IMG/VR virus record: IMGVR_UViG_2534681702_000002
From: a virus
Lineage: Duplodnaviria > Heunggongvirae > Uroviricota > Caudoviricetes
Reading direction: 5' to 3' (one strand)
Length of the DNA stretch: 15,630 nucleotides
Below the pieces are notes generated by a model. It had not been told where the DNA came from. It saw only the letters and a list, made by a program, of their open reading frames with translations, and did not search any database. A program made the translations under genes and the position numbers. This document shows positions 1-15,154 of the stretch, one piece after another; position 1 is the stretch's first letter, and each line of letters begins with the position of its first letter.

Positions 1-1164
1 TTACGCCTTCTTTATATCCTCCATAATTCCAGAGTGGGACATATTTGGGACATTATCACCAAAAATGTCGTCTATTTTCCTCGCATGCTCTGTCAAATGA
101 TTAGGCGCAAGGTGAGCATACCTACGAACCATTTCTATGGACTCCCATCCGCCCATTTCCTGAAGCACTGATAATGGGACGCCTGACTGAATCAGCCAGC
201 TTGCCCAGGTGTGTCTGAGGTCATGGAAACGGAAATCTTCAATTCCTGCACGACGACAAGCTGATAGCCATGATGTCTTGCTGTCGATGCGCATCTTCCT
301 GACCGCAGGCGTTGATGTTCCATCTGCTCGCTTAGCCGCCTTGGTATGTACAAACACCCATTTGTGATGCTTGCCTATTTGATCACGCAACACTTTACAG
401 GCGGTATCGTTCAGCGCCACACCAATGGCGCGGTTTGATTTGCTCTCTTCTGGATTCACCCAGGCAACTCGTCGCTGCATGTCGATTTGTTGCCATTCCA
501 GATTTATGATGTTCGACTTTCTCAGACCAGTTGCCAGCGCAAACTTGACGACAGATTTCAGTGGTTCGGGGCACTCATCAATAAGGCGTTTTGCTTCCTC
601 CTTTTCCAGCCATCTGACTCGCTTGTTTCTGACCGCTGGTATCTTGATGACAGGCGCTTTTTCCAGCCACTTCCAGTCGCGTTCTGCAGCACGGAGAATG
701 GCCTTTATCATGGCAAGATGCTTTGCCTTTGTCTGAGTTGATACTGGCTTTGGTTCATAAACAGGCGGTTCTTTACCTTTCCTGATGGCGGCCTGAACTT
801 TCTGTTTCCATATTTCTTTCGTCTTTCTGTTATGCATTCTGCTTACAGCAGAGTAAATCTTTGCCTCCGAGATATCTTTAAGCCTTATACCCTCAAAATG
901 TTCAAGCCAGAACTCAATCCGGCTTTTATCTGAATCGAGAGATTTTTTATCAGCTTTTTCCTCAAGCCATCTTAGGCAGGCCTCTTCAAAAGTGACATCA
1001 GGTAAATCCCCTAGCTTTTCTACTCGCCAGAGTTCTGCTTTTCGCTTGTCGTGCAACTCCTGAGCTTGCCGCTTGTCCTTTGTGCCAAGAGATTCCTTAA
1101 TTCGTTTCCCGCCCGGGAGCGAATACGAGGCATACCATATTTCATTTCTGCGGAAGAGTGACAT
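1..1164 (-). CDS. intD: Phage tyrosine integrase (387 aa), DLP12 IntD-like
   Basis: Full-length minus-strand ORF with ATG at 1164..1162 and GAGGAAAG Shine-Dalgarno upstream. C-terminal region carries the tyrosine-recombinase catalytic motifs (HDLRHT...RRY). The sequence matches my recollection of E. coli K-12 IntD. Confidence 0.88.
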
Positions 1165-1391
1165 TTTCTTTCCTCTGTTATGCCATCACCCGCGCTCACC
1201 TGGACAGTATGCAGCGGAGACTGAAGCGCCGCAATGCAGGCTTGCCGTGTTGTGAGGTAAGGAGATTTTGGCTTGGTTGGATCTTTACGTGTTGCCTGTA
1301 GGCGGCCTGTTCGTATCCAGTTGGTGGCGGTTGGTCTGGATATCTTAAGAAACTGACAGGCCTCATCGAGTGTGAGGCTGTATGATTCCAT
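1020..1391 (-). CDS. xis: Excisionase-like DNA-binding protein (AlpA/Xis family), 123 aa from the ATG at 1391
   Basis: Minus-strand ORF directly upstream of int. ATG at 1391..1389 preceded by GAGGTAACC. N-terminus [31 protein letters not shown] is a typical Xis/AlpA helix-turn-helix. The 3' end overlaps int by 145 nt, which is unusually long for xis, so the C-terminal part may not be native. Confidence 0.6.
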
Positions 1392-1641
1392 GGTTACCTC
1401 TGCTTTTTGAACGCATGTCACGTAACTTCTTAATGTGTTCTGCCGTTTCGATCTCTTCTGCTATCCGATCTGCATCAGCTTTATTCACAGGTTCAAAGTC
1501 ATGATTAAAGCGGAACATGCTGGCGATACATGTTCTGCCTTTTCGGATGTAGTGAACTTTGTTGTGGGTAGAACGCAGGATTTTGCAGGGAGTGCCGTGG
1601 TGGTCGACGTACCAGGTGTTAGGCAAAATGATTCTGAACAT
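1363..1641 (-). CDS. Hypothetical small phage protein (92 aa)
   Basis: Minus-strand ORF with ATG at 1641..1639 and a GAGGTG Shine-Dalgarno 7 nt upstream. Its last ~9 codons overlap the xis start. No recognisable motif. Confidence 0.4.
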   Translation of the reverse strand: MFRIILPNTWYVDHHGTPCKILRSTHNKVHYIRKGRTCIASMFRFNHDFEPVNKADADRIAEEIETAEHIKKLRDMRSKSRGNHGIIQPHTR

Positions 1642-1654
1642 TTTTACACCTCAG

Positions 1655-1714
1655 TTGGAAGGTATGGCGAAAACACAGGTTATGTGGCTGAAAGAGGGGA
1701 TTATTAAGGCGTGA
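1655..1714 (+). pseudogene. 3' remnant (~19 codons) of the gene normally upstream of rusA (ybcO-like), lacking a start codon
   Basis: The frame ending at TGA 1712..1714, overlapping the rusA GTG, translates ...[19 protein letters not shown]. This resembles the C-terminus of the small protein I recall preceding rusA in K-12 (ybcO). The similarity is lost upstream of about 1655. Confidence 0.3.
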
Positions 1715-2073
1715 ATACCTACAGCATCACATTACCCTGGCCTCCGAGCAATAATCGCTATTACCGCCATAATCGCGGGCGCACGCACGTCAGCGCAGAG
1801 GGGCAGGCATACCGCGATAACGTCGCCAGAATCATTAAAAACGCAATGCTGGATATCGGCCTGGCTATCCCTGTGAAAATCCGCATTGAGTGCCACATGC
1901 CGGATCGCCGTCGCCGTGACCTGGATAATCTGCAAAAAGCCGCTTTTGACGCACTCACTAAAGCAGGTTTCTGGCTGGATGATGCTCAGGTCGTTGATTA
2001 CCGCGTTGTGAAGATGCCTGTTACCAAAGGTGGGAGGCTGGAACTGACCATCACCGAAATGGGGAATGAATGA
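1711..2073 (+). CDS. rusA: Holliday-junction resolvase RusA (120 aa), GTG start
   Basis: ORF translation [37 protein letters not shown]... matches recalled RusA over its full length. GTG start at 1711 with AGAGGGG upstream. Confidence 0.92.
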
Positions 2074-2210
2074 TGTTTGAGTTTAATATGGCAGAACTTC
2101 TTCGCCACCGCTGGATGCGCCTGCGCTTATATCGTTTCCCCAGTTCTGTTTTGACCGATTACCGAATACTGAGGAATTACGCCAAAACCCTGACAGGAGC
2201 AGGAGTATGA
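2070..2210 (+). CDS. ylcG: Small protein YlcG-like (46 aa)
   Basis: Not in the ORF track because it is under 60 aa. ATGATG at 2070 overlaps the rusA stop. Translation [46 protein letters not shown] matches recalled YlcG in sequence and in position between rusA and Q. Confidence 0.6.
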
Positions 2211-2295
2211 AGTCAGAGATAACAATCAACTAATACTGTTTTATTGATTTTTGCTTGTAATTGGCGTTCTGGTCTGATTTTTGTGGAGTAAGTTG

Positions 2296-2679
2296 ATGCG
2301 TGATATTCAGATGGTTCTTGAGCGTTGGGGAGCGTGGGCGGCTAATAATCATGAAGATGTGACCTGGTCGTCCATTGCCGCCGGTTTTAAGGGATTAATT
2401 ACTTCAAAAGTAAAATCTCGCCCGCAATGTTGTGACGATGACGCGATGATCATTTGCGGGTGCATGGCCCGTCTGAAAAAGAACAACAGCGATTTGCACG
2501 ATTTATTAGTAGATTATTATGTAGTCGGTATGACATTCATGTCACTGGCAGGTAAGCATTGCTGCTCTGATGGTTATATCGGGAAAAGGTTACAGAAGGC
2601 TGAGGGCATAATTGAAGGGATGTTAATGGCATTAGATATCCGGTTAGAGATGGATATCGTTGTTAATAACTCTAATTAA
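2296..2679 (+). CDS. quuD: Late-gene antiterminator Q (127 aa), phage 82/21-type
   Basis: ATG at 2296 with GGAG upstream (the track ORF begins earlier at a TTG). Cysteine-rich region ([24 protein letters not shown]) typical of Q-family proteins. Lies between rusA/ylcG and the lysis genes as in lambdoid phages. Confidence 0.8.
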
Positions 2680-2695
2680 TATGCCAATTGTTTAC

Positions 2696-2731
2696 TAAAA
2701 ATTATTAAAAATGGGGCGTTGAGACGCCCCC
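2696..2731 (-). terminator. Putative rho-independent terminator for minus-strand (nmpC) transcripts
   Basis: Perfect inverted repeat GGGGCG-ttgaga-CGCCCC at 2713..2730, followed on the minus strand by AUUUUUAAUAAUUUUU. Confidence 0.5.
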
Positions 2732-2820
2732 AAAAATAAAGGGTAATATATAACAGAAGGTTTATATAGTTAGAAGCAAGGTTGTGCTTCTAAAGGAAGT
2801 GGCTTGAGGGAGCCACTTAT

Positions 2821-2858
2821 ATGTTGGGGAGGCAAAGCCTCCCGCAACATATCTTTTT
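2821..2858 (+). terminator. Putative rho-independent terminator downstream of Q (tR'-like)
   Basis: Inverted repeat ATGTTGGGGAGGC-aaa-GCCTCCCGCAACAT at 2821..2850, followed by a TCTTTTT tract on the plus strand. Two further short hairpins lie at 2771..2792 and 2797..2820. Confidence 0.5.
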
Positions 2859-2868
2859 CGTAATCAGA

Positions 2869-3951
2869 TTAGAACTGATACACCAGACCTACAGCGACGA
2901 TGTCGTCGGTATCAATACCAGCTGTTTTGGTAAACTTACTATCGTCAATTAAGTTGATTTTGTAATCAACAAAAGTGGACATGTTTTTATTAAAGTAGTA
3001 AGTAGCACCGACATCGACATACTTGACTAAGTCTCGGTCACCATGAACACCAAGGTCTTTACCTTTTGACTGAAGGTAAGCAACAGATGGTCGCAGACCG
3101 AAGTCAAACTGATATTGTGCTACTGCTTCAAAGTTTTGTGCTTTGTTTGCAATATGGTTATTACCAAAAACGGTCATATTCTGAGTTTCAGAATATGTGG
3201 TAGCCAGATAGATATTGTTCGCATCATATTTCAGGCCTGCAGCCCATACTTCCGCATTTTTGCCGGAGGCATTGAATTTGCTCTTACCATAGGCGACCTG
3301 ACCGTCAGTGCGATCTGATTTAGCATAGGTTGCACCCACGCCGAATCCTTCATACTCATAAGTAGTGGAGAAACCGAAACCATCACCATTGGCTTCAGTT
3401 ACGTCAGTGCGGTCATTTTTACCCTGATACTGAGCAGCAAAGTTCAGGCCATCGACCAGACCAAAGAAGTCGTTGTTACGATAGGTTGCAACACCAGTGG
3501 TGCGACCAGTCATGAACACATCTGTTTGGGTCCAGGTATCGCCACCGAATTCTGGCAGAACGTCAGTCCACGCACCGATGTCGTATGCTACACCGTAGTT
3601 ACGGCCGTAATCGATTGAGCCGTAGTCACCGAATTTCAGGCCTGCAAATGCAAGACGGGTTTTGTCTTTGGAGGAACCTTGAGATTCAGCGCGGTTGCCT
3701 TTGAATTCATATTCCCACTGACCGAAACCAGTCAGTTGATCGTTGATTTGGGTTTCACCTTTGAAGCCAAGACGGGCATAAGTAGTATCACCATCATCTG
3801 CATCGTTAGAGGAAAAGTAGTGCTTGGCATTAACTTTCCCGTACAGATCCAGCTTGTTACTGTCTTTATTATAAATTTCAGCTGCCTGAGCAGACATCGT
3901 CATCAGTACTGATGCAGCTACAGCAGAAATTGCCACTGTTAATTTTTTCAT
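2869..3951 (-). CDS. nmpC: Outer-membrane porin, OmpC/Lc family (NmpC-like), 360 aa, apparently intact
   Basis: Signal peptide [23 protein letters not shown] followed by [16 protein letters not shown] and a C-terminal ...AVGLVYQF beta-barrel terminus. This is the classic general-porin signature and matches recalled NmpC/Lc. Confidence 0.85.
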
Positions 3952-4539
3952 CGTGAGCCCTTTTTTTTGAACTATTATTAAAAAATGATGTCACTGCGCG
4001 ATAAATATTCATCTAATCAATGTGATTATTTCAAGATGTAAGTTTTAGTTTCTCATTTAATTTGTGAAGTAGATCTCTATTTTTATCTGAACTTTTTCTA
4101 TCGAAACCTATTTATGGCTCTTATTTGAACAAAAATAAACCTATTAGCTAATTTATATTAATGGCTGTTATTTATGGGGGGGCTATAATTCGGTGGTTTA
4201 ATTTAAATCAACTAAAAATAACGCCGGAAATTATTTATTGGTTATTTGTTGAGGTTTTCTTATATATTTGTGGTGGTGTTTTGAACACTCGGTAGCATTC
4301 TCATAAATATCATTCAGTGGTTTACGTACGTAAAAAATTGGTTATGCTGTTAAGAGTGGTTACTTCGTCACACAGCTTAAACCCGCCGTCGAGCTGGTTT
4401 TTCCATTTTTTGAGTCTCGATATTAGCTGATAACTCAATACCTGAGTTATTCACTGACTCCGAGTCTGTTACGTTTCTGCTTTTTTGCGATACGTTGTAT
4501 TCCCTCAATTTACACCCGCTTTGTCTGCGAGGTGGGGTT

Positions 4540-4755
4540 ATGAAATCCATGGATAAGTTAACAACGGGTGTCGCCTATGGCACCTCAGCAGGTAGTGCCG
4601 GTTACTGGTTTTTACAGCTGCTCGATAAAGTCACGCCCTCACAGTGGGCAGCAATAGGTGTGCTGGGTAGCCTGGTATTTGGCCTGCTGACGTACCTGAC
4701 AAACCTTTATTTCAAGATTAAAGAAGATAAGCGCAAGGCTGCGAGAGGTGAATAA
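4540..4755 (+). CDS. essD: Class II holin (pinholin), S21-like, 71 aa
   Basis: [71 protein letters not shown] matches recalled phage 21 S / EssD. Real start is the ATG at 4540, inside the longer track ORF. Confidence 0.85.
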
Positions 4756-5252
4756 TGCCTCCATAATTACGAAAAGCCGTTGCTGCTGCTATTGGTGGCG
4801 GAGCAATTGCTATAGCATCAGTGTTAATCACTGGCCCAAGTGGTAACGATGGTCTGGAAGGTGTCAGCTACATACCATACAAAGATATTGTTGGTGTATG
4901 GACTGTATGTCACGGGCATACAGGAAAAGACATCATGCTCGGTAAAACGTATACCAAAGCAGAATGCAAAGCCCTCCTGAATAAAGACCTTGCCACGGTC
5001 GCCAGACAAATTAACCCGTACATAAAAGTTGATATACCGGAAACAACGCGCGGCGCTCTTTACTCGTTCGTTTACAACGTGGGCGCTGGCAATTTCAGAA
5101 CATCGACGCTTCTTCGCAAAATAAACCAGGGCGATATCAAAGGCGCATGTGATCAGCTACGTCGCTGGACATATGCTGGCGGTAAGCAATGGAAAGGTCT
5201 CATGACTCGTCGTGAGATTGAGCGTGAAATCTGTTTGTGGGGTCAGCAATGA
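4755..5252 (+). pseudogene. rrrD: SAR-endolysin (R21/RrrD-type lysozyme) with an in-frame TAA at codon 4; only a GTG at 4821 could restart, giving a 143-aa product without the N-terminal SAR domain
   Basis: The ATG at 4755..4757 overlaps the holin stop (TAATG coupling) and is followed by CCT CCA TAA. The same frame continues as [32 protein letters not shown]... (SAR hydrophobic segment) into the lysozyme domain. Recalled RrrD starts [12 protein letters not shown]..., so codon 4 TCA has become TAA. Confidence 0.6.
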
Positions 5253-5710
5253 ACAGAGTAACCGCGATTATCTCCGCTCTGGTTATCTGCATCATCGTCT
5301 GCCTGTCATGGGCTGTTAATCATTACCGTGATAACGCCATTACCTACAAAGCCCAGCGCGACAAAAATGCCAGAGAACTGAAGCTGGCGAACGCGGCAAT
5401 TACTGACATGCAGATGCGCCAGCGTGATGTTGCTGCACTGGATGAAAAATACACGAAGGAGTTAGCTAATGCGAAAGCTGAAAATGATGCTCTGCGTGAT
5501 GATGTTGCCGCTGGTCGTCGTCGGTTGCACATCAAAGCAGTCTGTCAGTCAGTGCGTGAAGCCACCACCGCCTCCGGCGTGGATAATGCAGCCTCCCCCC
5601 GACTGGCAGACACCGCTGAACGGGATTATTTCACCCTCAGAGAGAGGCTGATCACTATGCAAAAACAACTGGAAGGAACCCAGAAGTATATTAATGAGCA
5701 GTGCAGATAG
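5249..5710 (+). CDS. rzpD: Spanin inner-membrane subunit Rz (153 aa)
   Basis: ATG at 5249 overlaps the rrrD stop. N-terminal transmembrane segment followed by coiled-coil sequence. Matches recalled RzpD. Confidence 0.85.
5469..5651 (+). CDS. rzoD: Spanin outer-membrane lipoprotein Rz1 (60 aa), embedded in rz in the +1 frame
   Basis: Lipoprotein signal with lipobox LVVVGC, followed by a proline-rich mature region ([15 protein letters not shown]). Entirely nested within rzpD. Confidence 0.8.
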
Positions 5711-5741
5711 AGCTGCCCATATCGATGGGCAACTCATGCAA

Positions 5742-6035
5742 TTATTGTGAGCAATACACACGCGCTTCCAGCGGAGTATAAATGCCTAAAGTAATAAAAC
5801 CGAGCAATCCATTTACGAATGTTTGCTGGGTTTCTGTTTTAACAACATTTTCTGCGCCGCCACAAATTTTGGCTGCATCAACAGTTTTCTCCTGTCCAAT
5901 TCCCGAAACGAAGAAGTGATGGGTGATGGTTTCCTTTGGTGTTACTGCTGTCGGTTTGTTTCCAACAGTAAACGTCTGTTGAGCACATCCTGTAATAAGC
6001 ATTGCCAGAGCGGCAGAAAACAACATTTTTTTCAT
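5742..6035 (-). CDS. borD: Bor lipoprotein (serum-resistance family), 97 aa
   Basis: Real start is MKKMLFSAALAMLITGC..., inside the longer track ORF. Lipobox LITGC. Matches recalled lambda Bor / BorD. Confidence 0.85.
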   Translation of the reverse strand: MKKMLFSAALAMLITGCAQQTFTVGNKPTAVTPKETITHHFFVSGIGQEKTVDAAKICGGAENVVKTETQQTFVNGLLGFITLGIYTPLEARVYCSQ

Positions 6036-6394
6036 CTTATTATCCTGCATTGTTAAAAACGGCAGAATCCTATGTGACAACAATTAAACGATAGTTAAAT
6101 GGATTGATGAAAATTAAAACTATATAGGTGGATGCTCAGCCTATTGGAGGAGGGGGGCACTCAGAATCCTGTGGAATGAAATAAACCGCTCTTTCTGTCC
6201 ATTACCCTTTTAGCTGCGCTGTATCGTCGCCGTATTCCCGCATTAACCATGACCGTAGCCCGACGGGGAATTCCTTCTGCGTGAGTGTGCGGGAATAATC
6301 AAAAACGATGCACACCGGGTTTTACTGTGCTGACAGACGCAGGGTTACCCTCATAGTCGCTTTTCCGGTGCGATGGTGGAAGAAACCGGGATGT

Positions 6395-6589
6395 TTATTC
6401 ATCATCACTCTGGATTGATGTATATGCTCTCTTTTCTGACGTTAGTCTCCGACGGCAGGCTTCAATGACCCAGGCTGAGAAATTCCCAGACCCTTTTTGC
6501 TCAAGAGCGATGTTAATTTGTTCAATCATTTGGTTAGGAAAGCGGATGTTGCGGGTTGTTGTTCTGCGGGTTCTGTTCTTCGTTGACAT
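6395..6589 (-). CDS. ylcI: Small basic protein (64 aa), YlcI-like (DUF3950-type); possible ribbon-helix-helix DNA binder
   Basis: Arginine-rich N-terminus MSTKNRTRRTTTRNIRFPNQMIEQINIALEQKGSGNFSAWVIEACRRRL. Sits immediately upstream of cos/nohD, where I recall ylcI in K-12. The assignment is from memory. Confidence 0.45.
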   Translation of the reverse strand: MSTKNRTRRTTTRNIRFPNQMIEQINIALEQKGSGNFSAWVIEACRRRLTSEKRAYTSIQSDDE

Positions 6590-6749
6590 GAGGTTGCCCC
6601 GTATTCAGTGTCGCTGATTTGTATTGTCTGAAGTTGTTTTTACGTTAAGTTGATGCAGATCAATTAATACGATACCTGCGTCATAATTGATTATTTGACG
6701 TGGTTTGATGGCGTAGATGCACGTTGTGACATGTAGATGATAATTATTA

Positions 6750-6977
6750 TCATTTTGCGGGTCCTTTCCGGCGATCCGACAGGTTACGGGGCGGCGACCT
6801 CGCGGGTTTTCGCTATTTATGAAAATTTTCCGGTTTAAGGCATTTCCGTTCTTCTTCGTCGTAACTTAATGTTTTTATTTAAAATACCCCCTGAAAAGAA
6901 AGGAAACGACAGGTGCTGAAAACGAGCTTTTGGGCCTCTGTCGTTTCCTTTCTCTGTTTTTGGCCGTGGAATGAACA
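6750..6977. other. Lambda-type cos site (cosQ-cosN-cosB) with lambda right-end-like flank
   Basis: GGGCGGCGACCT, the lambda 12-nt cohesive-end sequence, lies at 6789..6800. It is preceded by ...CCGACAGGTTACG (lambda right terminus) and followed by CGCGGGTTTTCGCTATTTATGAAAATTTTCCGGTTTAAGG... (lambda left-end cosB region), running up to the Nu1 start. Recognition is against the lambda sequence as I remember it. Confidence 0.8.
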
Positions 6978-7523
6978 ATGGAAGTCAACAAAAAGCAGCT
7001 GGCTGACATTTTCGGTGCGAGTATCCGTACCATTCAGAACTGGCAGGAACAGGGAATGCCCGTTCTGCGAGGCGGTGGCAAGGGTAATGAGGTGCTTTAT
7101 GACTCTGCCGCCGTTATAAGATGGTATGCCGAAAGGGATGCTGAAATTGAGAACGAAAAGCTGCGCCGGGAAGTTGAAGAACTGCGGCAGGCCAGCGAGA
7201 CAGATCTCCAGCCAGGGACTATTGAGTACGAACGCCATCGACTTACGCGTGCGCAGGCCGACGCACAGGAGCTGAAAAATGCCAGAGACTCCGCTGAAGT
7301 GGTGGAAACCGCATTCTGTACTTTCGTGCTGTCGCGGATCGCAGGTGAAATTGCCAGTATTCTCGACGGGATCCCCCTGTCGGTGCAGCGGCGTTTTCCG
7401 GAACTGGAAAACCGACATGTTGATTTCCTGAAACGGGATATCATCAAAGCCATGAACAAAGCAGCCGCGCTGGATGAACTGATACCGGGGTTGCTGAGTG
7501 AATATATCGAACAGTCAGGTTAA
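6978..7523 (+). CDS. nohD: Terminase small subunit Nu1 (181 aa)
   Basis: MEVNKKQLADIFGASIRTIQNWQEQGMPVLRGGGKGNEVLYDSAAVIRWYAERD... is near-identical to recalled lambda Nu1 across its length. Confidence 0.92.
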   Translation: MEVNKKQLADIFGASIRTIQNWQEQGMPVLRGGGKGNEVLYDSAAVIRWYAERDAEIENEKLRREVEELRQASETDLQPGTIEYERHRLTRAQADAQELKNARDSAEVVETAFCTFVLSRIAGEIASILDGIPLSVQRRFPELENRHVDFLKRDIIKAMNKAAALDELIPGLLSEYIEQSG

Positions 7524-7713
7524 CAGGCTGCGGCATTTTGTCCGCGCCGGGCTTCGCTCACTGTTCAGGCCGGAGCCACAGACCGCCGTTGAATGGGCGG
7601 ATGCTAATTACTATCTCCCGAAAGAATCCGCATACCAGGAAGGGCGCTGGGAAACACTGCCCTTTCAGCGGGCCATCATGAATGCGATGGGCAGCGACTA
7701 TAACTGTTATTAA
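7498..7713 (+). pseudogene. Terminase large subunit (gpA) N-terminal fragment, about 66 native codons then divergence and a stop
   Basis: MNISNSQVNRLRHFVRAGLRSLFRPEPQTAVEWADANYYLPKESAYQEGRWETLPFQRAIMNAMGSDY matches the recalled lambda gpA N-terminus. Downstream of about 7700 the sequence is unrelated (NCY*). The start overlaps the Nu1 end as in lambda. Confidence 0.85.
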
Positions 7714-8626
7714 TGAAAATCCGACAGCACAAGGATATCAGGCAATTGCTGTAAACACGAATGATGCTTACACCTGCCCGGCAGGTTCTTATACGACGAT
7801 ATCGTGTCTGACGAAAAGTGATAATTCCCGGTGTCGTGCAAGGTTCGGAAAAATGTCTGATAATGGTGCGTTTGTTTTTCATTCAGATGCAGTTCTGGAT
7901 CCTGTTACGGGAAATGTTGTTCATGGAAATAATGTGACGGTGACGGCAGAAAGAGTCGGTGAATGGTGGTTGTTTACCGCCACTCTTTTTGCAGATGCGG
8001 AAATGATAATCAGCTCAAGATTTGAAATCCTGGCGATGCCTGGAATCAGTATTATCCCCAATGGCTCTACGTTAGATATTGCGATGCCTCAGGCGGAGAT
8101 TGGGTCGTACAGGACGTCATTTATCATTACTGAAGGGGCTCCTGGCACTCGCTCCAGCGACATGGTGACAATACCTGTAAGAAACAATATTCACCGATTA
8201 CCATTCAGTGCTCTTGTTGAAGTTAATAAAAACTGGGATATCCCTCCCAGCAAATCACCATTAATCTTTAATGTTAAAGATTATCAGGAAAATGGTCTGT
8301 TCACGCATGGATTCCGTGGTAATAATTTCTCTGATGCCGGTTCTCCTTTTATTTCTATGGGAGGGTGTAATAAATATGTGGCAACAACCCAGAGGAAAAT
8401 CATTTCAGGCTTCCGTTGTGGCGCTGATGGAGATGTTCAGGCCGTATGTAATGGTGAATTATCTGTTGCGGCAAAAACAACATGGACTTCAATTGTTCCA
8501 CGGGCAGTATTGCGAATTGGAGGGCAGGGCACTAATGGGGAGTATCATCTTTTTGGTCATATCCGTAATCTGCGTATCTGGCATAAAGAATTAACTGATG
8601 CGCAAATGGGGGAGAGTATTAAATGA
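7682..8626 (+). CDS. Chimeric ORF (314 aa): C-terminal fragment of a phage fibre / receptor-binding-type protein with a ConA/LamG-like C-terminus; its first 7 codons are terminase-A sequence read out of frame
   Basis: C-terminal ...NGEYHLFGHIRNLRIWHKELTDAQMGESIK resembles the end of LamG/concanavalin-like lectin domains. The ATG at 7682 has no convincing Shine-Dalgarno and sits inside the gpA remnant. Domain call is pattern recognition only. Confidence 0.4.
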   Translation: MRWAATITVINENPTAQGYQAIAVNTNDAYTCPAGSYTTISCLTKSDNSRCRARFGKMSDNGAFVFHSDAVLDPVTGNVVHGNNVTVTAERVGEWWLFTATLFADAEMIISSRFEILAMPGISIIPNGSTLDIAMPQAEIGSYRTSFIITEGAPGTRSSDMVTIPVRNNIHRLPFSALVEVNKNWDIPPSKSPLIFNVKDYQENGLFTHGFRGNNFSDAGSPFISMGGCNKYVATTQRKIISGFRCGADGDVQAVCNGELSVAAKTTWTSIVPRAVLRIGGQGTNGEYHLFGHIRNLRIWHKELTDAQMGESIK

Positions 8627-8904
8627 AAGATTTAACACTCAAATTTGCAGACAGGGCCGACTTTTCGGCCTTTATGGAGAGTATTGGCTATTATGATGAC
8701 GAGTCGATGCAGGATGATATTCTTATTGACGTGATAGGTAACGTGTACAAAGAAACCGGAGAACTGACTGAAGATGGCGAACCGGTATGTGTTAAGGAAG
8801 ACGGATATTTTGTAAACGTGCGCATCATTAATGATGTAAAAAAATCGTCAATATTCGATAAATACGCGGTTGTTGTTGAGCATCAACTTCGTGGCTGGAT
8901 GTGA
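8623..8904 (+). CDS. Hypothetical acidic protein (93 aa)
   Basis: ATG overlaps the stop of the preceding ORF (AAATGA). No recognisable motif. Separated from the next ORF, in the same frame, by one TGA plus 9 nt. Confidence 0.45.
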   Translation: MKDLTLKFADRADFSAFMESIGYYDDESMQDDILIDVIGNVYKETGELTEDGEPVCVKEDGYFVNVRIINDVKKSSIFDKYAVVVEHQLRGWM

Positions 8905-8913
8905 GGGAGACAA

Positions 8914-9618
8914 ATGGCTACATCGACAGTAATTCCAGGAGATATCACCACGCTAAAGGGAGATGTCAGTAAAACTAAGGAAGATATTTCCTCAATTAAC
9001 GGAAAAGTATCAACGCTTCAGACTGATATGACCAGTGCAAAGCAGGATATCAGCACCAGATACACAAAAACTGAAGTTGATAATAAGCTGAAAAACAAAC
9101 TGGAAGTGAACGATCTGGAAAGCGGTCGTTATGGTGGAGATTTTTACCCGTTGACTGGCCGTGAAGCGTTTTATATGTGGGGATTGGGCACGACTACAGC
9201 GGCGGCAAACCTTTATCTTAATCCTGACCCTGCAATTTCGTCTGTACTGCGGTCAACATCGTCTATTCGCTATAAACATTCAGTAGAGACGATAGATTCA
9301 GAGCACGCCGATCTCATTTTCAGGATGCGCCCTGTGTGGTACAGGTCGCAATACGAAAATGACAGGCGTGACTGGGGATTCTACGGATTGATTGCCGAGG
9401 AAGTAGGAGAAATTGCCCCTCAGTTTGTACACTGGCGACCAGCTAACGAAGATGATGCTCCTGAAGCTATTTCCAGCAATGGCCTTGTTGCCGAAGGTGT
9501 AATGTACGAACGTCTGGTTGTTCCACTGATTCACCATATCCAGAAGCTGACTGAAAGAGTTGATGAACTTGAGTCAGAATTAAAGTTGTTATCCGTTTCC
9601 CGAAGCGATATCGGATAA
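8914..9618 (+). CDS. Tail-fibre-like protein (234 aa): N-terminal coiled coil plus C-terminal intramolecular-chaperone (peptidase S74-type) domain
   Basis: GAGGGAG Shine-Dalgarno before the ATG. C-terminal segment ...RMRPVWYRSQ...GFYGLIAEEVGEIAPQFVHW...GVMYERLVVPLIHHIQKLTERVDELESELK fits the conserved pattern of fibre/tailspike auto-cleaving chaperone domains. N-terminal 70 residues are heptad-like (KGDVSKTKEDISSINGKVSTLQTDMTSAKQDIS). Confidence 0.6.
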   Translation: MATSTVIPGDITTLKGDVSKTKEDISSINGKVSTLQTDMTSAKQDISTRYTKTEVDNKLKNKLEVNDLESGRYGGDFYPLTGREAFYMWGLGTTTAAANLYLNPDPAISSVLRSTSSIRYKHSVETIDSEHADLIFRMRPVWYRSQYENDRRDWGFYGLIAEEVGEIAPQFVHWRPANEDDAPEAISSNGLVAEGVMYERLVVPLIHHIQKLTERVDELESELKLLSVSRSDIG

Positions 9619-9628
9619 AGGAGGAGTA

Positions 9629-9922
9629 ATGGATATAACACCTTTCCTTCATGCGCTTTGTGCTGTGGCTGCGCAGCTACTGATTGGTCTTTTTACCGGG
9701 AACTGGGCTTACGGGGCGATAGCCGGTTGTACGTTCTTCATTGCGCGTGAACACACCCAGGCAGAATATCGCTGGATCGAAATGTTCGGGCATGGCAAGC
9801 GAATGAATATGCCGTGGTGGGGCGGTTTTGATACACGTGCATGGGATGTGGCAAGCCTGATGGATTTTGCTGTGCCGGTGGTGGCGTGTCTGCTGGTCTG
9901 GCTGTTGGTTAATCGTGGGTGA
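9629..9922 (+). CDS. Small membrane protein (97 aa) with two predicted transmembrane helices
   Basis: Strong AGGAGG Shine-Dalgarno 6 nt before the ATG. Hydrophobic stretches at about residues 8-32 and 77-94, with a Trp/Arg-rich loop between them. No recognisable family. Confidence 0.55.
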   Translation: MDITPFLHALCAVAAQLLIGLFTGNWAYGAIAGCTFFIAREHTQAEYRWIEMFGHGKRMNMPWWGGFDTRAWDVASLMDFAVPVVACLLVWLLVNRG

Positions 9923-9932
9923 AAAAAGGTGA

Positions 9933-10052
9933 GCTGTATATGCAACGGAGGAAGAAAACTCGTTGCTGGAAGCCTGGAAAAAGTATCGGGTGCTGCTAAA
10001 CCGTGTGGACACTTCCGTAGCACCAGATATCGAGTGGCTTATTCAACCATAA
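9933..10052 (+). pseudogene. tfaX: 3' remnant of a tail-fibre-assembly (Tfa) gene, about 39 codons, no start codon
   Basis: Open frame translates ...[36 protein letters not shown], matching the recalled C-terminus of lambda-type Tfa proteins. Position directly upstream of appY matches K-12 tfaX. Confidence 0.55.
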
Positions 10053-10596
10053 TAAACAGTATGTATATCATAGGTTATTAATTGTGAGTTTTTTCGGTGT
10101 GTTATTTGTTTGTTTGATGTTATGCTTTTGCGCCCCAAAAGGTTGTTTAGATGTATTTTATCAATTGATTTTCAATGTCGTTTAATAAAGAAAAATTAAG
10201 CAAGCTGGATGTTGGTTTTTTGTTAATTGAATGGTTCTAATAATGTTTTTTTACTGTTGTTGAATGTGACTTGATAAGAAATGCAAGTAAAAATGATACT
10301 CTTTTTATTTTAAATTCAAACGGTTGACATATATATAGCAAGAGGTTTCAGGTGCGTTGTAGTGAGTTTATGTTAATAAAAAGTATAGTAAGCGTTGAAA
10401 AATGTAACTTTGAAATACGTTAGAATAAAAACAATATACATATAATAATTTAATCTTAAATGAAATTTATTAAAATTTGCAAACTATAATTTTGTGTATA
10501 AAAATATAAATGCACATCATCCTGATTATGATTGTGTATTTAATTGGTTGTTATTTGACTGCTATCAACTTGTTTTAATTTTATGATAGGTGCAAG

Positions 10597-11339
10597 ATGG
10601 ATTATGTTTGCTCCGTAGTTTTCATCTGTCAATCATTTGATTTAATTATAAACAGGAGAGTTATCTCGTTCAAAAAAAATTCATTGTTTATTGTAAGCGA
10701 CAAAATTAGAAGGGAGTTACCAGTATGCCCCTCTAAACTAAGAATTGTTGATATAGATAAGAAAACATGTTTATCCTTTTTTATCGACGTGAATAATGAG
10801 CTGCCTGGCAAATTTACTCTTGATAAGAATGGCTATATTGCTGAAGAGGAACCTCCATTATCGCTTGTTTTTTCTCTGTTTGAAGGGATTAAAATAGCAG
10901 ACTCACACTCCCTTTGGTTAAAAGAAAGACTATGTATATCCTTACTTGCCATGTTCAAAAAACGCGAAAGTGTAAATTCATTTATACTAACAAATATAAA
11001 TACATTCACCTGTAAAATTACTGGAATAATCAGTTTTAATATTGAGCGGCAATGGCATTTAAAAGATATTGCGGAATTGATTTATACGAGTGAAAGTTTA
11101 ATAAAAAAAGATTAAGGGATGAAGGAACGTCATTTACTGAAATATTGAGAGATACTAGGATGAGGTATGCAAAAAAACTCATAACTTCAAACTCTTATTC
11201 TATCAATGTCGTAGCCCAGAAATGTGGCTATAACAGTACTTCATATTTCATATGTGCATTTAAAGATTATTATGGTGTCACGCCATCTCATTATTTTGAG
11301 AAAATAATCGGCGTCACAGATGGAATAAACAGGTAATGA
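10597..11339 (+). pseudogene. appY: AraC-family regulator AppY, disrupted by a 1-bp frameshift at an A7 run (11103..11109) and by an IS1 insertion 12 nt before its native stop
   Basis: The 172-aa ORF (10597..11115) and the 63-aa ORF (11145..11336) are in different frames, yet together form a continuous AraC-type C-terminal helix-turn-helix domain (...[19 protein letters not shown] / [25 protein letters not shown]...[18 protein letters not shown]). The native last codons (AAA ACA ATT GAC TGA) lie at 12882..12896, beyond the IS1 pair. Confidence 0.85.
11323..11331. repeat. 9-bp target-site duplication GAATAAACA, left copy, of the outer IS1
   Basis: Identical 9-mer immediately flanks both ends of the outer IS1 (11323..11331 and 12876..12884). 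Confidence 0.85.
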
Positions 11340-11378
11340 CTCCAACTTATTGATAGTGTTTTAGGTAGTGACTCCAAC

Positions 11379-11882
11379 TTACTGATAGTGTTTTATGTTC
11401 AGATAATGCCCGATGACCTTGTCATGCAGCTCCACCGATTTTGAGAACGACAGTGACTTCCGTCCCAGCCTTGCCAGATGTTGTCTCAGATTCAGATTAT
11501 GTCGCTCAATGCGCTGAGTGTAACGCTTGCTGATAACGTGCAGCTTTCCCTTCAGGCGTGATTCATACAGCGGCCAGCCATCCGTCATCCATACCACGAC
11601 CTCAAAGGCCGACAGCAGGCTCAGAAGACGCGCCAGTGTGGCCAGAGTGCGTTCACCGAAAACGTGCGCCACAACTGTCCTCCGTATCCTGTCATACGCG
11701 TAAAACAGCCAGCGCTGACGTGATTTAGCACCGACGTAGCCCCACTGTTCGTCCATTTCCGCGCAGACAATCACATCACTGCCCGGTTGTATGCGCGAGG
11801 TTACCGACTGCGGCCTGAGTTTTTTAAGTGACGTAAAACCGTGTTGAGGCCAACGCCCATAATGCGGGCAGTTGCCCGGCAT
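11379..11882 (-). CDS. insB: IS1 InsB reading frame (167 aa), expressed as the InsAB' transposase by -1 frameshifting; inner copy
   Basis: Translation matches IS1 InsB. Overlaps insA in the -1 frame. Identical at protein level to the copy at 14634..15137. Confidence 0.9.
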
Positions 11883-12076
11883 CCAACGCCATTCATGGCC
11901 ATATCAATGATTTTCTGGTGCGTACCGGGTTGAGAAGCGGTGTAAGTGAACTGCAGTTGCCATGTTTTACGGCAGTGAGAGCAGAGATAGCGCTGATGTC
12001 CGGCGGTGCTTTTGCCGTTACGCACCACCCCGTCAGTAGCTGAACAGGAGGGACAGCTGATAGAAACAGAAGCCAC
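11801..12076 (-). CDS. insA: IS1 InsA (91 aa), inner copy
   Basis: [43 protein letters not shown]... is the zinc-finger plus HTH InsA. The A6C frameshift motif (TTAAAAAAC) lies at its 3' end. Confidence 0.9.
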
Positions 12077-12104
12077 TGGAGCACCTCAAAAACACCATCA
12101 TACA

Positions 12105-12626
12105 CTAAATCAGTAAGTTGGCAGCATCACCGTGTTTTATGTTCAGATAATGCCCGATGACTTTGTCATGCAGCTCCACCGATTTTGAGAACGACAGCGA
12201 CTTCCGTCCCAGCCGTGCCAGGTGCTGCCTCAGATTCAGGTTATGCCGCTCAATTCGCTGCGTATATCGCTTGCTGATTGCGTGCAGCTTTCCCTTCAGG
12301 CGGGATTCATACAGCGGCCAGCCATCCGTCATCCATATCACCACGTCAAAGGGTGACAGCAGGCTCATAAGACGCCCCAGCGTCGCCATAGTGCGTTCAC
12401 CGAATACGTGCGCAACAACCGTCTTCCGGAGCCTGTCATACGCGTAAAACAGCCAGCGCTGGCGCGATTTAGCCCCGACGTATCCCCACTGTTCGTCCAT
12501 TTCCGCGCAGACGATGACGTCACTGCCCGGCTGTATGCGCGAGGTTACCGACTGCGGCCTGAGTTTTTTAAATGGCGGAAAATCGTGTTGAGGCCAACGC
12601 CCATAATGCGGGCGGTTGCCCGGCAT
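12105..12626 (-). CDS. insB: IS1 InsB reading frame, outer copy; C-terminus altered (…[11 protein letters not shown]) because the ORF runs into the inserted inner IS1
   Basis: About 90% identical to the inner InsB. The last two native codons (YQ) are replaced by read-through into the inner IS1 end, extending the ORF to 173 aa. Confidence 0.8.
12132..12139. repeat. 8-bp target-site duplication GTGTTTTA, right copy, of the inner IS1 (left copy at 11356..11363)
   Basis: Direct 8-bp repeat, itself part of the outer IS1 sequence, flanking the inner 768-bp element. Confidence 0.85.
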
Positions 12627-12820
12627 CCAACGCCATTCATGGCCATATCAATGATTTTCTGGTGCGTACCGGGTTGAGAAGCGGTGTAAGTGAACTGCAG
12701 TTGCCATGTTTTACGGCAGTGAGAGCAGAGATAGCGCTGATGTCCGGCAGTGCTTTTGCCGTTACGCACCACCCCGTCAGTAGCTGAACAGGAGGGACAG
12801 CTGATAGAAACAGAAGCCAC
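12545..12820 (-). CDS. insA: IS1 InsA (91 aa), outer copy
   Basis: InsA-like. Differs from the inner copy at two residues (…GLNTIFRHL versus …GLNTVLRHL). Confidence 0.9.
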
Positions 12821-14100: not shown

Positions 14101-14439
14101 AAAAGTTCTCCATTCAATCGTTTTAATGATTGAATATGTATTTTTTATATCTAACTTAATGAGTCAATTACATATTGCTCCACTGTTTATATTTTGTTTA
14201 GTATTGAATGATTATCACAATGCGCTATCTGTTTTTGGTTTAATTATCTGTTATTGTTTCATATTGCGGTTTTACTGTGTGGTTTTTTTATGCTTTTGTG
14301 GTGCTTTTATCTATTTAAGTGCCATGCCTTTAGAGGCATATAAGCGAAAATAGCATGAGGTTTATCCTCAATTACTATGTTTTTGGTGATGCTGCCAACT
14401 TACTGATTTAGTGTATGATGGTGTTTTTGAGGTGCTCCA

Positions 14440-14715
14440 GTGGCTTCTGTTTCTATCAGCTGTCCCTCCTGTTCAGCTACTGACGGGGTGGTGCGTAACG
14501 GCAAAAGCACCGCCGGACATCAGCGCTATCTCTGCTCTCACTGCCGTAAAACATGGCAACTGCAGTTCACTTACACCGCTTCTCAACCCGGTACGCACCA
14601 GAAAATCATTGATATGGCCATGAATGGCGTTGGATGCCGGGCAACTGCCCGCATTATGGGCGTTGGCCTCAACACGGTTTTACGTCACTTAAAAAACTCA
14701 GGCCGCAGTCGGTAA
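14440..14715 (+). CDS. insA: IS1 InsA (91 aa), third copy
   Basis: Protein identical to InsA of the inner IS1. Confidence 0.9.
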
Positions 14716-15137
14716 CCTCGCGCATACAACCGGGCAGTGATGTGATTGTCTGCGCGGAAATGGACGAACAGTGGGGCTACGTCGGTGCTAAATCACGTCA
14801 GCGCTGGCTGTTTTACGCGTATGACAGGATACGGAGGACAGTTGTGGCGCACGTTTTCGGTGAACGCACTCTGGCCACACTGGCGCGTCTTCTGAGCCTG
14901 CTGTCGGCCTTTGAGGTCGTGGTATGGATGACGGATGGCTGGCCGCTGTATGAATCACGCCTGAAGGGAAAGCTGCACGTTATCAGCAAGCGTTACACTC
15001 AGCGCATTGAGCGACATAATCTGAATCTGAGACAACATCTGGCAAGGCTGGGACGGAAGTCACTGTCGTTCTCAAAATCGGTGGAGCTGCATGACAAGGT
15101 CATCGGGCATTATCTGAACATAAAACACTATCAGTAA
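14634..15137 (+). CDS. insB: IS1 InsB reading frame (167 aa), third copy
   Basis: Protein identical to InsB of the inner IS1. A6C frameshift motif TTAAAAAACTC at about 14690. Confidence 0.9.
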
Positions 15138-15154
15138 GTTGGAGTCACTACCCG

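Follow-up and report, generated by a model that had tools for sequence, protein, structure and literature searches.

Here we describe a premature ochre codon in the signal-anchor-release (SAR) endolysin gene rrrD (ybcS) of the cryptic prophage DLP12, in a 15,630-nucleotide stretch of E. coli prophage DNA, hereafter the window. A single substitution, A in place of C at position 4765, converts Ser4 into a stop, and the lysis cassette as written would be left with a pinholin, two spanins and no endolysin. The reading we favor, at a probability of roughly 0.55, is a private nonsense mutation that reflects recent neutral decay in one strain.

The finding is of a kind already known: in a well-characterized gene of a prophage that was already defective, either a nonsense point mutation has made a pseudogene or a base was miscalled. 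Its significance is low and goes little beyond annotation: rrrD should be flagged here as a pseudogene interrupted by an internal stop, and the 143-aa open reading frame from the GTG at 4821 should not be called a lysozyme. Knowledge of SAR endolysins, pinholins and prophage domestication is unchanged. Should the A be genuine, this strain would carry a natural endolysin-null form of the DLP12 lysis module. In K-12 the module has been connected with vesiculation, biofilm and maintenance of the cell wall, phenotypes for which the strain could then provide a natural control.

The rrrD reading frame and its relatives

The open reading frame content showed that the window comes from an ETEC-like E. 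coli and covers the region of its cryptic prophage DLP12. The nearest complete genomes are those of the enterotoxigenic (ETEC) strains FORC_031 and E2386, with an identity of ~99.95%.

Table 1. Features of the window. Gene names are taken from the annotation of the closest complete genomes (FORC_031, E2386 etc.).
Feature	Coordinates	Strand	Basis or remark
intD	1-1164	-	
quuD, Q-type late antiterminator, intact	2296..2679	+	annotation in relatives; upstream of lysis cassette
rusA		+	listed alongside quuD
nmpC/ompC-like porin gene, intact, 360 aa	2869-3951	-	
private GG (4181-4182) and invariant TATAAT (4184-4189), candidate late promoter	4181..4189	+	putative assignment
essD, 71-aa class II holin, phage 21 S type (pinholin), intact	4540..4755	+	PF04971
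Shine-Dalgarno GAGGTG for rrrD	4744..4749	+	sequence reading; 5 nt before ATG, within essD 3' end
rrrD (ybcS), DLP12 SAR endolysin gene, pseudogene as written	4755..5252	+	translation, PF00959
premature ochre TAA, codon 4	4764..4766	+	base 4765 A versus C (TCA, Ser4) in relatives
SAR TM domain coding segment, residues 8-27	4776..4835	+	cut off from start codon
GTG, codon 23, first in-frame canonical start past stop	4821..4823	+	open reading frame list; 143-aa signal-less product
rzpD, inner-membrane spanin (Rz), sequence intact	5249..5710	+	PF03245, 4.3e-54
rzoD, outer-membrane lipoprotein spanin (Rz1), intact	5469..5651	+	in +1 frame of rzpD; PF06085, 2.9e-20
bor/iss		-	after rzpD/rzoD
ylcI		-	after rzpD/rzoD
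nohD and tail-fibre fragments		+	after rzpD/rzoD
appY		+	after the tail-fibre fragments
IS1 copies			after the tail-fibre fragments
ompT		-	after the tail-fibre fragments

The original prediction, made from the letters alone, placed an in-frame TAA at codon 4 of rrrD, ahead of the SAR domain, and reading and translation of the sequence confirmed it. As was also claimed, the start codon overlaps the holin stop in the form TAATG: the essD stop occupies 4753-4755 and the rrrD ATG 4755-4757. The frame then continues with CCT (4758-4760), CCA (4761-4763) and TAA (4764-4766), so that the translation ends after Met-Pro-Pro; the base that follows the TAA is a T. Beyond this stop the same frame encodes the whole SAR segment and the lysozyme domain, up to the TGA at 5250-5252. 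The lysozyme domain matches Pfam PF00959 (1.3e-45) and has the E-x8-D-x5-T triad of GH24 phage lysozymes as E35, D44 and T50, in frame downstream of the stop; the same three catalytic residues are listed for both PDB 4ZPU and PDB 3HDE (PMC8228626).

Base-by-base alignment revealed A at 4765 in the window and C in all sequences compared, which comprised ETEC E2386, FORC_031, strain C and further loci. This base is the sole difference from the close relatives across 4183-10426, and in those relatives rrrD is annotated as intact, with 165 aa. When C is restored and the protein is aligned to K-12 RrrD (PDB 4ZPU), a check that had been suggested, 164/165 residues are identical; the identity to the phage 21 endolysin (PDB 3HDE) is also 164/165. 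The proposal that one C-to-A change (TCA to TAA) explains the lesion was thus substantiated both by the alignment to relatives and by the identity of the repaired protein.

With TAA in place of the TCA found in all relatives examined, and with the remainder of the gene colinear, the window allele has the form of a nonsense pseudogene. Two features separate it from working SAR endolysins: the Gly/Ala-rich TM segment is encoded, yet it lies 3' of the codon-4 TAA with no in-frame start before codon 23, and the reading frame from start to stop is interrupted. As written, the window rrrD is a pseudogene of the SAR endolysin family (R21/RrrD type) and not a functional member of it.

A megablast search of 5,426 complete E. 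coli genomes found no exact copy of a 61-mer centered on the stop. It could be located in 3,061 complete genomes, 3,054 of which matched at 60/61, one base off. Exact-pattern scans of GTDB species-representative genomes, IMG/VR and JGI metagenome contigs did not find the TAA allele, and TAA was seen in 0/25 loci fetched. Among the public sequences searched, the allele is a singleton, private to the window.

Loss of the rrrD N-terminus by other routes is common in E. coli. The 143-aa product from the GTG is indexed on two short contigs only, both with other lesions and with foreign sequence joined inside the gene. A 105-aa product that begins with the ATG of codon 61 occurs in 383 indexed blocks; at the ten places inspected, homology breakpoints fall at window-equivalent 4766-4919, with adjoining IS3-family transposases or deletions and, in one case, a 2-bp frameshift. 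In the places inspected this product arises through IS insertion, deletion or frameshift, and in none through a TAA. Among the 5'-truncated rrrD-like loci L016-L025 (e.g. L017 961-1318, L020 832-1318, L018 593-1318), breakpoints are spread across the first 55 codons; L018 (593-1318) has a 2-bp deletion in place of the 5' loss in its rrrD-like gene. Like the window allele, these other E. coli pseudogenes have lost the endolysin N-terminus in prophage remnants. The losses elsewhere in E. coli and Shigella are insertions, deletions and frameshifts, several of them widespread, whereas the window carries a point nonsense seen only here.

Predicted consequences for the DLP12 lysis cassette

The holin gene essD matches Pfam PF04971, "Bacteriophage P21 holin S", with an E-value of 2e-35 over 63/64 profile positions, and opens with the dual start ATG AAA TCC ATG (4540-4551), encoding M1-K-S-M4. 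Its product is identical to the "phage lysis protein EssD" of the relatives (WP_000839596.1). P21 holin S membership and the dual-start motif (antiholin/holin) together assign EssD to the pinholin family. S21 is a pinholin that forms heptameric channels of ~2 nm (PMC9239132, PMC9636201); it is unable to substitute for lambda S and partners Sec-exported SAR endolysins (PMC9636201, PMC9239132), which are held tethered and inactive and are released upon depolarization (PMC9239132, PMC9636201). The profile match, the MKSM motif and the S21 literature bear out the suggestion that the partner holin is of the S21 type, a pinholin in the phage 21 paradigm.

Downstream, rzoD lies wholly inside rzpD, the arrangement of a two-component embedded spanin, and its translated sequence has a lipoprotein-type cysteine in ...VVVGC. 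The rzpD product is identical to WP_001301134.1 of the relatives, and none of essD, rzpD and rzoD has a single base difference from the closest relatives. The rzpD ATG overlaps the rrrD stop as ATGA (5249-5252). The active lambdoid phage mEp332 has the same gene order, nmpC(-)-S-R-Rz-bor(-)-Nu1, with 99.4% identity over holin and endolysin; since mEp332 is active with this arrangement, the intact form of the cassette is a working phage lysis cassette.

In the window, ribosomes would load at the good Shine-Dalgarno sequence and at the ATG that overlaps the holin stop, and would terminate after three residues. By analogy with phage 21, an enzyme without the SAR domain would not be exported by Sec, would find no passage through S21-type pinholin channels of ~2 nm and would adopt a catalytically inactive conformation. 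Given these three barriers, the cassette would be without endolysin, and the holin could still depolarize the membrane. From the sequence and the phage 21 paradigm, we infer that the lysis cassette as written is endolysin-null. The lesion may also reach the spanins: because rzpD is coupled to the rrrD stop through the ATGA overlap and ~480 nt of message upstream would go untranslated, expression of rzpD and rzoD is probably lowered. A C/G content profile gave only a modest C>G stretch at ~4927-5090, 3' of the stop, and no decisive Rho polarity signal. The earlier claim that holin and spanins stay intact therefore holds for their sequences, which are identical to those of the relatives, but probably not for spanin expression, where coupling is lost.

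The mechanical open reading frame list gives just the 143-aa frame from GTG 4821 for rrrD, and between the TAA and this GTG there is no in-frame canonical start, only ATT and ATA codons; a restart that keeps the SAR domain is ruled out on this ground. The restart product would lack residues 1-22, which make up nearly the whole SAR transmembrane segment. The SAR core, 20 residues of which 7 are Ala, 4 Gly and 4 Ile, gives a 19-residue hydropathy maximum of 2.11, against 0.73 for the GTG-4821 product, in keeping with the claim that this product would lack the export signal. Such a protein would be cytoplasmic and, by analogy with R21, probably inactive. The PDB holds a separate SAR-less form of R21 (27-165, 3HDF) in its own crystal form. 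SAR-less R21 is reported to take up an inactive conformation, since it is the released SAR domain that, on refolding into the protein, reportedly brings a catalytic residue into place.

Conceivably, ribosomes read through the TAA or start again at GTG 4821 or ATG 4935, so that active enzyme is still made and the cassette stays lytic. The lysozyme domain with its E35, D44 and T50 is intact 3' of the stop, and short +1-frame open reading frames end at a TAG (4813-4815) just 5' of GTG 4821 and could bring terminating ribosomes there. The GTG, however, has essentially no Shine-Dalgarno sequence (best anti-SD duplex -1.9 kcal/mol); its product would be neither exported nor able to pass pinholin channels of ~2 nm, and the 27-165 form is reported to be inactive. 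The next ATG, at 4935 (codon 61), sits beyond the catalytic triad. Read-through is opposed by the context, TAA followed by T being the most efficient terminator context in E. coli. We therefore regard continued production of active enzyme as very improbable.

Other ways around the stop were rejected. Recoding of the selenocysteine type does not apply, TAA not being a recoding codon in E. coli, and a +1 or -1 slip at CCA-TAA would leave the frame unrestored. The window encodes no tRNA, and hence no local suppressor tRNA, and has no Rfam match to a structured RNA.

An endolysin-null cassette has close counterparts among known systems. The gene for K-12 RrrD (YbcS) is found at this very locus, with the operon likewise ordered essD-rrrD-rzpD/rzoD; the codon-4 TAA occurs only in the window, and nmpC is intact in the window whereas K-12-like loci carry IS5. 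Phage 21, with R21 (3HDE, full length) and S21, shares the holin family and the same SAR/pinholin logic, but in the window translation from the native start does not reach the SAR domain and the best restart product (23-165) comes near the SAR-less 3HDF construct. Nonsense mutants of lambda R (Ram) are lysis-defective: the holin still kills, and lysis does not follow. Lambda Ram and the window both have a lambdoid S-R-Rz cassette whose endolysin gene carries a nonsense codon. In lambda Ram this is a laboratory amber, the endolysin is soluble and the phage viable; in the window the codon is an ochre of natural (or artefactual) origin, the endolysin is of the SAR type and the prophage is dead. 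In Shigella the loss, again in a prophage remnant, takes in the whole DLP12 lysis module (PMC7918800).

Mutation, base-call error and selection at position 4765

We incline somewhat to the view that the strain does carry A at 4765. That rrrD is intact (TCA) as in other genomes, and that the A arose in sequencing, consensus building or editing, is less probable, although to be taken seriously. An error would fit an allele that is a singleton among the 3,061 genomes with the junction and absent from the contig collections scanned, and the window has other differences of a suspect kind. These are two 1-bp homopolymer deletions, A5 versus A6 at 10427 and A7 versus A8 at 11103, and a unique TT-to-GG change by which G5TT becomes G7; homopolymer deletions and G-run lengthening form a pattern typical of consensus errors, and the appY truncation that accompanies the deletion at 11103, present in 697 assembly blocks including K-12-like backgrounds, suggests an error-prone site. 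Position 4765, however, lies outside any homopolymer, inspection of the neighboring letters showed no Dam (GATC) or Dcm (CCWGG) site there, and substitution errors are far rarer than homopolymer indels in finished assemblies. Moreover, other private differences are certainly real (an IS1 insertion and an 8-kb deletion), and others look evolutionary: appY carries one private synonymous change, and Gly51 of IS1 InsA (at 12670), the canonical residue, agrees with the window's other IS1 copies where the relatives have Ser. From these four differences it follows that the strain has a real private branch. A consistent mutator signature was rejected, the private changes being mixed (T>G twice, C>A once, T>C twice).

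About 4.4% of the possible single-base changes in rrrD make a stop, and the window has four private substitution events; that one or more of four such changes would make a nonsense codon in some gene has a probability of ~0.11. This is within chance, so that the stop needs no special explanation and no selection is required. The alternative that the stop is real and selected, which we consider improbable, would have silencing of the DLP12 endolysin benefit a pathogen-lineage strain through less peptidoglycan-fragment release or autolysis, as a point-mutation parallel to the pathoadaptive module loss in Shigella, with the private GG as a possible second hit near a candidate promoter. Shigella has lost the DLP12 lysis module and restoring it raises peptidoglycan release and lowers virulence, and in K-12 the module is expressed and affects vesiculation (Pasqua et al., PMC7918800); these reports speak for a selected stop, as does the placement of two of the four private substitution events within the ~1.6-kb lysis unit. 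Yet the probability that two out of four events fall by chance in 1.6 kb of a 13.3-kb stretch is estimated at ~0.08, beside the ~0.11 for one nonsense among four. There is no evidence of selection on the stop, and the allele is common to no clade and gives no sign of spread or recurrence. In addition, the single-gene ybcS deletion in K-12 has a mild effect, a 1.7-fold change in an OMV marker (PMC7918800), and the late promoter is itself a candidate.

Recent neutral decay thus remains our preferred account of the stop. DLP12 here is a remnant of ~13 kb from integrase to ompT, in which repressor, replication and head genes are all absent, and with these genes gone, prophage lysis on induction is not a live phenotype. 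The original prediction of a quiet inactivation of prophage lysis accordingly stands in so far as the endolysin is predicted to be null as written, and loses significance in that DLP12 was already a non-inducible remnant. In such a remnant the most likely history would be recent neutral pseudogene decay in a single strain, and not a regulated or selected event.

The GG lies two bases 5' of the TATAAT, and this allele occurs in 0/77 complete genomes with the corresponding 62-mer; the TATAAT is invariant in four lineages, including ETEC, K-12-like and the active phage mEp332. Some 200 nt 3' of the TATAAT (window 4380-4403), K-12 and mEp332 have a terminator-like AAACCCGC-N6-GCGGGTTTTT, and in the window and its ETEC relatives a GCTGG in this element makes a stem mismatch. 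As far as the sequence goes, these elements are laid out before the holin gene in the manner of pR'/tR', the late promoter and terminator of lambdoid phages.

Neighboring genes and other differences from relatives

Positions 1-4180 of the window have zero differences from the relatives. The porin gene within this part, at 2869-3951 (-) (133-1230 in locus L026), is intact, and the K-12-like loci fetched have IS5 inside nmpC. Since mEp332 shares the porin-holin-endolysin-spanin-bor order, the nmpC porin is a phage-borne moron and no peculiarity of DLP12.

Within the lysis cassette, the ETEC O6:H16 relative CP022912.1 has a 1-bp deletion in rzpD at window-equivalent 5595, and its product is called at 133 aa versus 153. 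This is either a further small cassette lesion in a neighboring lineage or an assembly error.

Further along, the intergenic A run before appY is 1 bp shorter at 10427 (5 versus 6 in the relatives). In appY itself (10597-11115), the A run at 11103-11109 has 7 bases versus 8 in the relatives, which cuts the product to 172 aa; an identical truncated AppY is indexed in 697 public-assembly blocks of very different backgrounds, K-12-like loci included. Either this run is a hot spot of slippage or the same error recurs across assemblies.

After appY, an extra IS1 (11364-12131), missing here in the closest relatives, sits within the resident IS1B, ~25-32 bp from its end, and ~8 bp are duplicated. The extra copy and the IS1 at 14385-15152 are 100% identical and lie in inverse orientation. 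In the segment 14101-15630, the ompT upstream region directly adjoins the latter IS1, where FORC_031 has ~8.2 kb between the two, comprising envY, ybcH, nfrA, nfrB and an ISAs1 fragment. This arrangement points to an IS1-associated deletion of envY-ybcH-nfrA-nfrB in the window's strain relative to FORC_031, and ompT is now flanked by identical inverted IS1 copies.
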